Made by a program: the position numbers
Origin: a virus
Lineage: Duplodnaviria > Heunggongvirae > Uroviricota > Caudoviricetes
DNA: 48,133 nt
Strand: one strand, 5' to 3'
Virus record (IMG/VR): IMGVR_UViG_2519899779_000002
Shown here: positions 6,001 through 9,000 of the stretch, one piece after another
How the letters are laid out: each line of letters starts with the position of its first letter
How positions within the stretch are numbered: the first letter of the stretch is position 1

Positions 6001-9000
6001 GAAAGCGCACCACGGAAACGGAAGCGATTTAAATTAAATTTTTCCAGATCATGAATGCGGAAATTCTCAGGCAATGCCACAGCATCGGCACCAATCTTAC
6101 TGATAATTTCATTAACACCCTGAGCAGAAATAAGGGCATGGATTTGATTAATTGCGGTTGCGTCTAAGTTCTGAGACATAATAAGTCCTCACTATATTAA
6201 GATATTCAGTGATGAGATAAATAATCAGTTAATTAAGAACGATATTAATGACCTGCTGCGCGGAGTTTTCCGTCAGGTTCACCGGCAAGAGTCAGTAATT
6301 GTCCCTGGTCTTCCTGCAGAATAGTCAGGCGACCACCTCGATTGACATACATCGGCGTTTCGGTGGTGTCTTCTTCGGAGATTTTCCCGCGGTTAGTCGG
6401 GCGAACATATGAGAGTTTGTGTTTGATTTTCACACGGTTCTCATCAAACGGTTCGATGTCCAGATTGACCGAGACTTTACCTTTGTTTTTCGTGTTCATC
6501 ACACCGGAAGCGACTTCACTGAGAACTGCGCCGAGTTTGGTTTCAAATACGCCGCCGTCCAGTTCTACGATAAATACCTGCACATCAGTACTGCGTACGC
6601 TAGCCATTTTGCTGCTCCTCATCATACCGACCCTGCAAGGTCGGTTGGTTTCTCCACAAAACAGAGAAGAACACCTGCGGTGACAGCCGCCCGGATGGAT
6701 TGGGTTATGAGCCCGTCGTCCGGTGATGCTCTTCTCTGTTTTGTAAAAAGAGCGGTACCAGCCGGAAGCAAGGGTACAAACTGGTACCGCCAAAGCAGTG
6801 GCTGTTGTGGTGGGGTTGTCACTCAGGCGTATGGTCAACCTGACAATCCGGTGTCCTCAACGGGGAAAGAGTAACCCCGCCATACTTACCGCCGCGCCAT
6901 TTCGCGGATTACCACAACGCTGAGAGCACTTAGCCAGTTACGGCACCACACTTTGTCGCGGTTCCATAAATGCCCTCATCGTTGCACCCTGGTCTCTTCC
7001 CAGGCGTCAAACCGGATCGCCACGCTGGTTAGGCGTCTTATCAGCATCATCATTGACTTGCACATTCCGGCTACCTGGTTTGTTTGCCCGAGCAAGGAGT
7101 GGATTGTCCCCTTTAACGTCACCAGACCGCTAACGACGCATGTGCCATACGCCGTGTTACAACCAAATTTTGTTAGTACCTTGTTTGTATGTCTGGAAAG
7201 AAAGATAAAATGAAGTTGCGCATTATGCAAGTGTTTTTATTGCGAGATATGCAATTTGGTGGGTAATGAAAAGCCACCTTCTGGTGGCTAATTGATGTTG
7301 AGGTAGGGGTTAATTGTGTCGCTTAAGGGTTTGTGACTGACTGATTAAGACCTTTCCAAAGACCATAAACCGATGTTCGTTTTCGCTGGTAATTCCCCAT
7401 TCGCGGTAAATCTGATTATCAGAAATTACCAGCAGTTTATCAGGTATCATTTGCAGTCGTTTGACGTAAATTTTATCATCAAAACCAAATACATATATAC
7501 CATCCCCATCAAACTGATTGATACTGATATCAACGAAGATGAGATCTCCTGGCTCAATGGTTGGACACATACTGTCCCCACGAACGTTGATAACTTTAAT
7601 GTGATTGGCTGGCCGTCCGCCAAACATCGATACAGCATTATCAGTTCTGTATTCAATGGCATGAATCACATCAATGACATCACCGCCCTGGATAAGGCCA
7701 TTTCCCGCACTGGCACTGACATCCAGCATTTCAATACGGAATACATCCTTCACCTGCGCAACATCCTCACCAATACTGTTTTTACATACAGTATTACTTT
7801 TGACGTCTGAGGTAAAGAGATCAGCGATATCAACACCTAAGCTCCTGGCAATATTACTCAGGGCTTGTTCAGTGAATTGTTTCTGCTTACCTGTTTCCAG
7901 GCGTGAGATATTCGCCGCATCCACTCCTATTGCTTCAGCGAGATCGGCGATTTTCATGTTCTTCGCCTGGCGAAGTTGTCTGACTCGGTTTCCTATGTTC
8001 ATGCGTTTATTACATTTCTTTATTGCGCGTTAAGCAAATCAACTTGCGCAAAATATTTGCGTGAAATAATATGCTCATCACGCAATATGTGGAGGTTATA
8101 TGCAATCACCATTACGGAATGTGCGTAAGGCGCACGGATTTACTTTGCAGCATGTTGCTGCGGGCGTTCAGGTCAATCCAGCGACGCTGAGTCGTATTGA
8201 AAGACTGGAACAAATTCCATCTATCGATCTTGCAGAACGTCTGGCCAATTTTTTTAAGGGTGAAATCAGCGAAATGCAGATTCTTTATCCGGCACGTTTT
8301 CAATCTAGCCAAAACCAGAATGGGTTTAAACCACAGGAACAGGAGGTAAGCCGTGGGTAATCATCACTGGAAAGTGGAAAAACAGCCTGAGTGGTACGTG
8401 AAAGCTGTCAGAAAAACTATCGCGGCGTTGCCGGGGGGTTACGCTGAAGCTGCTGAGTGGCTGGATGTAACAGAGAACGCATTATTCAACCGCCTTCGTG
8501 CAGATGGCGATCAGATTTTCCCGCTGGGATGGGCAATGGTTTTACAGCGTGCGGCTGGCACTCACTACATTGCGGATGCTGTCGCACAGTCTGCTGGTGG
8601 GGTGTTCGTATCGCTTCCTGAAATTGAGGCAGTAGAGAACGCCGATATAAACCAGCGCCTGCTGGAAGTCATTGAACAGATCGGCAGTTATTCCAGACAG
8701 ATTCGTTCAGCAATCGAAGACGGTGTAGTGGAACCGCATGAGAAGACAGCAATTAACGACGAACTGTATCTTTCAATTTCGAAGCTCCAGGAGCATGCAG
8801 CACTGGTCTACAAAATCTTCTGCGCTCCAGAAAAGAGTAACGCCCGCGAGTGTGCAGCTCCGGGCGTCGTGGCGTCGATTGCTTCTGGTTGTGGAGAAAC
8901 TAACGCATGAATAGTTTAACGGCAAATAACCGTTTGTCGCAACAGCTGGTGGTCAGCGTCGCTGAACACCTGTTGTTACGGCATGAATGCAGATTACCAA

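Follow-up and report, generated by a model that had tools for sequence, protein, structure and literature searches.

The window analysed here, a 48,133-nucleotide (nt) stretch of DNA from the IMG/VR virus record IMGVR_UViG_2519899779_000002, is a lambdoid Escherichia coli prophage that is mEp460/SfV-like. It was found that the region 6608-7262, of which the minus strand corresponds to the RNA, is a ~590-nt untranslated leader of the early-left (pL) operon with four conserved RNA modules. Inside this leader, a processed small RNA (sRNA) of 174 nt is predicted at 6919-6746 on the minus strand; it is an sRNA-17 variant that corresponds in both position and structure to the 190-nt long DicF. On the RNA strand, the modules follow each other as E5 (pL and operators, 7310-7201), E4 (~7168-6985), E3 (6918-6804), E2 (6790-6745) and E1 (6749-6645), and the predicted sRNA is made up of E3 and E2. 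The pL transcript is probably processed into this sRNA of the DicF class, with the read-through RNA being cut or stabilised at the long hairpin of E1.

E3 (6918-6804, minus strand) is a multi-helix domain, which is closed by the pairing of GUUGUGGU (6918-6911) with ACCACAAC (6811-6804). Within this 8-bp closing helix are a CCGCG/CGCGG hairpin, a hypervariable CGGGG/CCCCG hairpin, a 3-bp long-range helix and a 9+3-bp hairpin, in which GUUGUCA/UGACAAC carries the invariant loop GGUUGACCAUACGCCUGAG. In an alignment of 26 distinct homologues, which included Qin-like prophages and P1-like phage-plasmids, the named structure was paired at 97.0%, compared with 32–59% when the partners were slid. Compensatory change was observed at 12 pairs, and the observed values were reached by no shuffle. 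The hypervariable hairpin changes in sequence among the homologues, but its stem is always kept.

The segment 6812-6918 is 93.5% identical to that between ydfC and dicB in the Qin prophage of E. coli K-12, directly upstream of the DicF match, which the Rfam library finds in Qin at 76.7 bits. It was reported that Qin yields two DicF species, one of 190 nt, the 5' end of which is generated by RNase III, and one of 53 nt, which is produced by RNase E; that both arise from the DicA-repressed operon promoter; and that no internal promoter was found (Ragunathan 2023). By counting 190 nt back from the 3' end of DicF, a position 6–8 nt before the closing helix GGUUGUGG was reached in Qin. The window has the same arrangement as long DicF, with a conserved structured domain at the same relative position immediately 5' of the sRNA hairpin. 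As at the DicF locus, this 3' hairpin lies in an early-left lambdoid operon, starts with UUUGGCGG and has a pyrimidine-rich loop and a U-tract.

The second mapped relative is sRNA-17 of E. coli K1 RS218, a 193-nt RNA of an mEp460-like prophage, which was defined by 5' and 3' rapid amplification of cDNA ends (RACE) and Northern blotting, and whose deletion raised the yfdP reads ~95-fold (Sun et al. 2020, PMC7719688). To place it on the window, its primer sequences were used together with an IMG/VR locus that is identical to it. The primers set the 5' end at CGUUGUGGU and the 3' end in the U-run of GGCGGUACCAG...CUGGUACCGCUCUUUU; in the window, these end sequences map to C6919 and ~6746, respectively, with 0–1 mismatch. 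The matching unit in an RS218-type locus (L005) is 194 nt long. The 5' start, the closing helix, the linker and the 3' terminator of the window are as in the mapped sRNA-17, but the full 193-nt sequence is not present in the window, where the inner domain is replaced by that of 93.5% identity to Qin. Among 80 related IMG/VR loci, the inner domain was of the Qin type in 32, of the RS218 type in 27 and of a third type in 8, and all three types lie between the same closing helix and hairpin. The predicted sRNA at 6919-6746 is a recombinant between the sRNA-17 and DicF loci. In the initial annotation, a prophage sRNA had been offered as one of two possible identities of this leader, and it is this one that is supported.

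E2 (6790-6745, minus strand) consists of GCGGUACCAG (6790-6781), a pyrimidine-rich loop, CUGGUACCGC (6761-6752) and UCUUUUU (6751-6745). The perfect 10-bp repeat 6752-6761/6781-6790 and the UCUUUUU that follows it on the minus strand had been overlooked by the initial annotation, and a simple terminator scan also overlooked E2, because its loop is longer than 8 nt. The fold has an energy of -21.2 kcal/mol (z = -4.14), a stem of 10–13 bp and an unusually long loop of 15–19 nt; a GC-rich stem with an immediate U-run is what characterizes an intrinsic terminator. A boxA-like motif had been proposed at 6741-6754. The sequence is indeed present (plus strand ttgtaaaaagagcg; leftward RNA CGCUCUUUUUACAA), but it could not be retained as boxA, since the 10-bp repeat and the UCUUUUU after it make the words at 6754-6741 the 3' half of a hairpin and its U-tract. 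Nor did boxA (CGCUCUUA / UGCUCUUUAACAA) appear as a single-stranded conserved element in the homologues, which read CGCAAUUUUUU, GCGCUUUUUUU, GCCACUUUUU and GCCCUUUUU at this place. In other genera, the boxA-like words become AAUUUUUU, GCUUUUUUU or CACUUUUU, and the stem and the U-run alone are kept. In distant genera, the E2 stems compensate, for example as GGCGGCGUCUGA/GAGGACGCCGC and GGCGGUACAGG/CCUGCUACCGCC, with the U-run constant. The boxA reading was rejected because its words are unconserved outside E. coli and lie inside a terminator. A more general lesson for annotation is that words resembling boxA in phage leaders can be no more than terminator arms.

The hairpins 3' of E3 were found to differ among phages, but all of them start with UUUGGCGG, have a pyrimidine-rich loop with CAGUUU or similar first, and finish with a U-run, and DicF belongs to this group. 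E2 occupies the position of DicF in Qin, and the two share the opening UUUGGCGGUAxCAGUUU. E2 is a terminator-type sRNA hairpin.

A course of events can be proposed by analogy with these relatives. Transcription would start at pL near 7195 under the control of cI-type operators, and the RNA would fold stepwise, E4 first and then E3. When the E2 hairpin and its U-tract are reached, a share of the polymerases would terminate. A cut at the base of the E3 closing helix, for which RNase III would be expected as for the 190-nt DicF of Qin, would then free a stable RNA of ~174 nt (6919-6746). The pyrimidine-rich loop of E2, in which CAGUUU comes first as in DicF, would be the likely pairing seed for host mRNAs. 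The polymerases that read through would make E1, whose 22–25 bp helix would act as an RNase III-type duplex, so that cleavage would separate the sRNA from the mRNA. The yfdP message would thereby be left with a structured 5' end before its ribosome-binding site, which may set its stability and translation.

As for the targets, the ribosome-binding site region of ftsZ is a validated target of DicF; the repression of ftsZ, like the RNase III-made 5' end and the RNase E short form, is known from Qin only. In one related locus (L135), the hairpin at ~5590-5640 has the loop AGUUUCUCUCC, which over 11 nt is perfectly complementary to the ribosome-binding site GGAGAGAAACU in the ftsZ leader of MG1655 (L337), and this loop matches the site better than DicF itself. 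RNAduplex comparison of the sRNA with the ftsZ leader is a crude method, by which even DicF was no better than shuffles. It was also observed that the conserved 3' tail of E1 (GGAGAAACUAAC) resembles the ftsZ site; from this resemblance, the tail could be a cis target or a mimic for loops of the L135 type. A further observation concerns CACAACA. The prophage anti-sRNA AgvB uses the R1 seed of GcvB, for which this heptamer is the consensus target (Tree 2014). It is found in the 3' strand of the sRNA closing helix (6804-6811, with the linker to 6797), and most homologues from outside E. coli also have it in the 5' arm of E1. The Pas sRNAs and AgvB/AsxR were rejected as candidates, as they are late-region RNAs and do not lie at the leader locus.

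Several points weigh against the processing of the pL transcript as proposed above. What is assumed of the sRNA ends, of the nucleases and of the share of read-through is taken over from relatives. The inner domain in the window differs from that of the RACE-mapped sRNA-17, and loci like that of the window were termed 'degenerative' sRNA-17 (Sun et al. 2020, PMC7719688). The Rfam DicF model (RF00039) gave no match in 6200-7400 at expectation values (E) up to 10, and E2 is called a DicF-locus variant, not DicF, because this model does not score it. The E2 loop of the window pairs with 8 of the 11 positions of the ftsZ site. The near-invariant E1 apex (GACGGGCUCAUAACCCAAUCC) and the invariant loops of E3 and E4 are unneeded by a plain RNase III site, which points to additional partners. 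Finally, Sun et al. (2020, PMC7719688) proposed an own, ArcA-regulated promoter for sRNA-17 in a fragment that equals E4.

According to this last proposal, the sRNA is an independent gene with an ArcA-repressed promoter in E4 and is not a product of pL processing. The "sRNA-17 promoter" fragment of Sun et al. corresponds to 6919-7168 of the window, that is, to the E4 segment. Phosphorylated ArcA shifted this fragment, but 20–80 μM protein was used for the band shifts (PMC7719688), and a scan of the minus strand at 6919-7170 found no sigma-70-like site. It was also reported that sRNA-17 is detected in uninduced lysogens and rises in stationary phase (PMC7719688), as would suit a gene of its own; however, DicF has the same stationary-phase pattern from a repressor-controlled promoter without an internal one (Ragunathan 2023). 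The quantitative reverse-transcription PCR amplicon that was used for sRNA-17 corresponds to 7168-6793 and begins ~250 nt upstream of the mapped 5' end, and therefore those expression data report a longer leader transcript. E4 is moreover a conserved structured RNA module, which stands mid-operon in P1 too. A separate promoter thus seems unlikely, and processing is favoured because of the upstream amplicon, the lack of a promoter-like site and the precedent of Qin.

E1 (6749-6645, minus strand) is a three-way junction with a lower helix of 22–25 bp, a GGGCUCAUAACCC hairpin arm, a second, variable hairpin and the 3' tail GGAGAAAC. The initial annotation had described here a perfect 15-bp stem (6656-6670 with 6730-6744) enclosing two GC-rich hairpins. 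This stem is present, extends to 25 nt at 84% complementarity and is the lower helix of E1, and the minimum-free-energy and consensus folds agree on the two hairpins. The RNA 6930-6600 was calculated to fold at -140.3 kcal/mol (z = -4.36), which none of 100 shuffles equalled; this fold and the strong covariation among homologues confirmed the inverted repeat as a real RNA structure. Taken alone, the initial 300 nt (7215-6900) folded no better than shuffles (z = -1.39).

The consensus structure of E1 from 38 sequences has 34 pairs, which form the 22-pair lower helix, an arm with an internal loop that ends in a 3-bp hairpin, and the variable second hairpin. In these sequences, 97.4% of the cells were paired, compared with 42–59% when the partners were slid, and compensatory change was observed at 12 pairs and in 69 cells, a level that was reached in 0 of 500 shuffles. 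The lower helix, with 22 pairs and 98.1% paired in the 38 sequences, offers the about two turns of near-perfect duplex that are expected of an RNase III site.

Homologues were collected with YfdP as the handle, by which 110 loci were fetched. E1 was found with yfdP at 69–100% identity in Escherichia, Shigella, Mangrovibacter, Atlantibacter, Enterobacter, Kosakonia, Phytobacter, Leclercia, Scandinavium, Superficieibacter and Pseudocitrobacter. E1 likewise stands before rdgC-like, xis-like, yfdR-like and holin-like genes, and at one locus (L193) it lies ~30 nt after a pL-like promoter with operators. What comes before E1 is a terminator or a tRNA gene. Shortened forms were observed in late operons, where a terminator or tRNA genes lie on one side of them and the holin gene on the other. 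These data indicate that E1 is an operon-leader module and is not specific to yfdP. A T-run stands directly upstream of E1 in at least 94 of 151 instances; only this count was used, because the automatic classifier of the upstream context often took the stem of the terminator for the outer helix. A covariance model of E1 (R1) scored the E1 of the window at 113 bits and found no second copy in the window, with none in the pR or late operons.

E4 (7168-6985, minus strand) is a non-coding block, which consists of the hairpin ACGGCGUAUGGCACAUGCGUCG, the invariant run GGUAGCCGGAAUGUGCAAG, the motif UGGCGAUYCGGUKUGAC and the hairpin CCUGGGAAGAGACCAGG. Between tRNA-Ile2 and ban, P1 has a segment with 79% identity to 7168-6991, and the homologues of E4 have long invariant blocks and hairpins. 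The provisional consensus fold of E4 (11 sequences) has 34 predicted pairs, of which 5 show compensatory changes; by itself, the E4 segment folded no better than shuffles. In two Phytobacter ursingii loci (L098, L101), ARAGORN found a tRNA with anticodon aat, labelled Ile, that ends ~40 nt before the sRNA-type hairpin; the leaders of some hosts therefore start with a tRNA gene and not with E4 and E3.

The other identity offered by the initial annotation, a nut/put-like antitermination element, was not upheld. Apart from the boxA words, which belong to a terminator arm, no boxB was found as a short hairpin with a GNRA-like pentaloop soon after boxA; what follows is the 22–25 bp helix of the 105-nt three-way junction E1. 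No N-type arginine-rich antiterminator gene stands first in the pL operon, since the leader has no conserved open reading frame (ORF) and the first gene is yfdP, and there is no room for nutR, because cro and the cII-like gene overlap. The occurrence of CAUGCGUCG in both putL and E4 looked suggestive, and a put covariance model (R2) was therefore built. It was made from 18 distinct putL/putR sequences of IMG/VR loci with the divergent pair, and the putL and putR of HK022 were extracted as well. With filters off, R2 gave no match in 6608-7262, and its best hit in the window had E = 0.29 at an unrelated place. Comparison of the HK022 pL and cro-cII regions with the leader by blastn returned 8–9-mers only. 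A put identity of the leader was rejected, as the resemblance in CAUGCGUCG was not backed by the R2 model.

Antitermination by RNA alone could in principle be achieved without kinship to put, if E4, E3 or E1 bound the RNA polymerase that transcribes it, made it resistant to E2 and Rho, and so replaced N. The missing N gene and the lack of space for nutR would leave room for such a function, and the invariant loops of the modules are what would be expected of a partner conserved across hosts. The position of the L193 E1, ~30 nt past its pL-like promoter with operators, is that of HK022 putL, but in the window E1 lies downstream of E2, which is the sole strong terminator of the early-left operon. 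Downstream of yfdP, this operon has no more terminator-like sites than shuffled sequence. In P1, E3 stands immediately downstream of the C1-controlled ban promoter, and next comes a terminator that has to be passed for ban. The window, however, has one E1 copy and none in its pR or late operons, and E1-like elements also occur in late operons that already have Q. Together with the absence of put similarity in both sequence and model, these observations make antitermination by the leader RNA quite unlikely.

E3 might alternatively work as an attenuator or riboswitch-like element, which senses a metabolite, a protein or a tRNA and by its folding decides whether E2 forms, and thus whether the sRNA or the early-left genes are made. 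Two unrelated inner domains can replace E3 between the same helix and terminator, and this argues against the need for a specific sensor. The architecture would nevertheless suit a sensor: in the window, Qin and P1, a conserved multi-helix domain with invariant junction and loops and one hypervariable peripheral hairpin stands directly before a terminator. The invariant GCGGCGGUAAG of E3 could compete for the 3' arm of E2, because it repeats the start of the terminator 5' arm (GGCGGUA). No covarying alternative pairing was found, however, and the common GGCGG may only reflect a shared descent of the terminator base. An attenuator was judged to be a distinctly improbable explanation, and a pL transcript that is processed into a DicF-class sRNA is preferred.

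The apex of E1 (6702-6715, minus strand; CGGGCUCAUAACCC) shows a 14-nt identity with the anticodon arm of the E. coli initiator tRNA-fMet, which covers three G-C pairs and the CUCAUAA loop. This tRNA sequence was verified in genomes, where it is found at 100% identity in a median of four places per genome and annotated as tRNA-Met. The identity is contained in the near-invariant apex GACGGGCUCAUAACCCAAUCC, which is the most conserved part of E1 across genera, and the loop variants retain a 7-nt loop with UCAU. One might think of an initiator-tRNA mimic, in which the apex engages the tRNA or translation apparatus of the host (the 30S P site together with IF3, methionyl-tRNA synthetase (MetRS), or tRNA-fMet-cleaving VapC-type nucleases) as a decoy or an aid to initiation. 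The UCAU in a 7-nt loop and the G-C closing pairs in every variant, and the position of E1, always immediately before the first ribosome-binding site of an operon, would suit such a role. The resemblance was, however, spotted post hoc, and the tRNA-like arm amounts to 3 bp. Some variants have U instead of a purine at the equivalent of tRNA position 37 (CUCAUUC), and one has a different loop. No tRNA cloverleaf is formed: the Rfam tRNA matches at the gathering threshold in the whole window are the three genes at 18474-18722, and none was found in 6200-7400 at E up to 10. Such mimicry is accordingly rated as very improbable.

A broader version of this idea, which is speculative and has a low probability, would treat E4, E3 and E1 as three structured RNA families without an Rfam match at the heads of repressor-controlled and late operons of lambdoid phages and P1. 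In it, E1 may act via the host tRNA or translation machinery, either as a decoy for tRNA-fMet anticodon nucleases or as a ligand of the P site, IF3 or MetRS that tunes the initiation of the first gene. If the initiator-tRNA-like hairpin of E1 has a host partner, it would represent a new kind of interaction between a phage RNA and its host.

Coding potential of the leader was also inspected. On the transcript strand, mechanical ORFs of 84 amino acids (aa; from TTG 7230) and 66 aa (from GTG 6822) are present, with a 29-aa ATG sub-ORF from 7065, and several deposited phage records annotate hypothetical proteins at the leader. A hidden small protein, in the sense of a short N-like leader ORF that is translated into a functional product, is nevertheless extremely improbable. 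None of these ORFs has a Pfam match or a Shine-Dalgarno sequence before it. The ORFs of the E4 segment (84 and 29 aa) are interrupted by stops or frameshifts or have lost their start codons in homologues; the comparison covered these two, and the 66-aa ORF traverses the covarying helices of E1, E2 and E3. The observed substitutions are compensatory for the RNA helices. These results agree with the initial annotation, in which no convincing or N-like ORF had been seen in the leader. A mini-ORF of the type GUG/AUG-GAG-AAA after the long stem was rejected, as its stop and length were inconsistent. The frame of yfdP is open for 77 codons upstream of its ATG, to 6838, giving a 197-aa TTG ORF across E1 and E2. 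The true start of yfdP is the ATG at 6607, which has GAGGAG upstream.

The leader starts beyond the cI-like repressor gene (7310-8002, minus strand). A terminator-like hairpin at the end of cI (AGCCACCAGAAGGTGGCT followed by TTTCATT, 7272-7289, minus strand) bounds the pL control region on its upstream side. Two operator-like dyads, TTGCGCATTATGCAA (7216-7230) and TTGCGAGATATGCAA (7240-7254), belong to a direct-repeat family; they are of the TTGCNNNNNNNGCAA type, as are the dyads between cI and cro. The putative pL promoter (7230-7202, minus strand) has a -35 box TTGCAT (7230-7225), a 17-nt spacer and a -10 box TATCTT (7207-7202). It was read by eye from its analogy with pR (TTGCGC, 17 nt, TAATAT) across cI, and this site scored below the threshold of a consensus promoter scan. 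The start near 7195 thus follows from the presumed position of pL. At the other end of the leader, a small CCGACC/GGUCGG hairpin (6645-6626, minus strand) is followed by the Shine-Dalgarno sequence GAGGAG (6620-6615) and the yfdP ATG (6607-6605); in other genera, this hairpin reads CGGCGG/CCGCC, a compensatory change. yfdP (6245-6607, minus strand) is the first early-left gene, and to its left lie a DUF2303/yfdQ-like gene (5355-6179) and a yfdR-like gene (4691-5254). Beyond cI, cro (8100-8360) overlaps the cII-like gene (8353-8910).

A stretch of 771 bases was found at 98% identity in the phages PhiR47_1, PhiR40_1 and PhiR55_1; for mEp460 and a Stx2k phage, the identity is ~90%. E. coli FORC_069 has an identical region (100%). 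Parts of the stretch, mostly fragments, are present in 134 phage records and in 4769 of the 5426 complete E. coli genomes, and the region is therefore a mosaic. Rfam 15 matched no module of the leader, either when gathering thresholds were applied to the whole window or when E values up to 10 were allowed for 6200-7400. Weak Hammerhead_II and ar7 matches were rejected as chance. The type II hammerhead ribozyme match (15.5 bits, E = 5.6) has no stem III and rests on the Shine-Dalgarno region and GAAAC, and the CUGAUGA of the hammerhead core is not kept in the leader homologues. To our knowledge, E1, E4, and E3 as a domain common to lambdoid phages and P1 have not been described; no paper on them was found. 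They represent two or three well-supported candidate RNA families without an Rfam match, for which alignments and one covariance model are available for wider searches.

Some observations were made elsewhere in the window. At 9267-9452 on the plus strand, Rfam isrK (9267-9343) and C4 antisense RNA (9365-9452) matches lie within the ORF 8907-10052 of the rightward early operon. This segment looks like a c4-ant immunity module of the P1/P7 type. The 381-aa ORF 8907-10052 is probably spurious in its first half, with the antirepressor-like part starting near 9500. The stretch 18474-18992 contains three tRNA genes and, after them, STnc100 (140 bits), and in Klebsiella phages (L338, L339) a short E1-like element occupies the slot of STnc100 between the tRNA genes and the holin gene.

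Compared with known systems, the ban leader of phage P1 (AF234173; Lobocka et al. 2004) is like the window in that E3 is present at 75–77% identity with compensatory changes, in a segment annotated as 'dicF-like region'. In both, E3 is followed directly by an intrinsic terminator under a repressor-controlled early promoter; the P1 copy lies just after the C1-controlled ban promoter and has its own terminator. E1-like and E4-like modules stand in the same leader of P1. The P1 leader differs in the order of the modules, with tRNA genes and tciABC interspersed, and its terminator hairpin is unrelated and the GUUGUGGU closing helix absent. With the R1 model, two E1-like elements were found in P1 (L237, AF234173) at 2496-2609 and 2779-2857, with 39.8 and 29.7 bits, respectively. 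These elements lie opposite in strand to the hypothetical genes plp and upl, and the structured RNA of this part of the ban leader may have led to these two coding-sequence calls as artefacts.

STnc100 (RF02076) and PasD (Zhu, Shabalina and Storz 2026, PMC13192938) also have a closing helix around inner hairpins, which is followed by a terminator hairpin. The third version of the inner domain (L019 type) has CACCGGGAGGCACCCGGCACCA in common with STnc100, and the closing helices of the two are similar. Unlike the leader RNA, STnc100 and PasD belong to the late region from Q to lysis, and the Rfam STnc100 model does not match the leader. The put RNAs of HK022 (King 1996; Hwang 2022, PMC9378689) are likewise structured and stand first in an early operon of a lambdoid phage without an N-type antiterminator. 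They suppress terminators in cis, and mutations in the zinc-binding domain of the beta-prime subunit block this activity. They differ in being ~70 nt long with two stems and in occurring in both the pL and pR operons, whereas the pR operon of the window has no such element.

Leaders in which RNase III acts on a long hairpin offer another comparison. Lambda nutL with its RNase III-sensitive N-leader hairpin and the intercistronic RNase III sites of T7 resemble the window in the long duplex between the leader element and the first ribosome-binding site of an early operon. The metY-nusA leader resembles it in having a stable RNA and a terminator and then an RNase III hairpin. The window differs from all of these, with no boxA, boxB or N; its E1 is a three-way junction with an invariant apex, at which cleavage is predicted.

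The nearest relatives are sRNA-17 and the DicF of Qin. sRNA-17 lies, as the RNA of the window does, in an mEp460-like prophage between the repressor and yfdP, flanked by the same E4 and E1. The two have in common the 5' start CGUUGUGGU, the helix GUUGUGGU/ACCACAAC, the linker AGCCACUGCU, the hairpin GGCGGUACCAG..CUGGUACCGC and the U-tract. The inner 100–120 nt are unrelated, with 193 nt in sRNA-17 compared with 174 nt here, where the domain is of the Qin type. The authors of that study assumed an own promoter, and pL processing is favoured here. For the dicBF locus of Qin (Faubladier 1990; Balasubramanian 2016; Ragunathan 2023), the 5' domain is 93.5% identical and the position in an operon leading leftward from a cI-like repressor is the same. 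The RNAs are similar in length (190 nt in Qin compared with 174 nt here). The 3' hairpins share their opening and end in a U-tract, but the rest of the hairpin differs. In both, a long perfect inverted repeat comes after the terminator. The linker is 9 nt in the window compared with 15 nt plus the DicF 5' seed in Qin, and therefore a 53-nt short form may not exist here. Upstream, ydfABC is absent from the window and E4 is found instead, and the downstream gene is yfdP, not dicB.

In a 2016 study, BLAST found no DicF or DicB in phage genomes. It was found here that intact phages (mEp460, Stx2c-converting phages, PhiR47_1 and P1) carry the DicF precursor domain in an early operon leader. DicF has until now been studied as an oddity of a defective prophage, and the window shows its ancestral setting. 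DicF and sRNA-17 are thus two versions of one modular locus with interchangeable sRNA hairpins, some of which match the ftsZ site exactly, and this locus gives a testable route for the swapping of sRNA seeds among phages.

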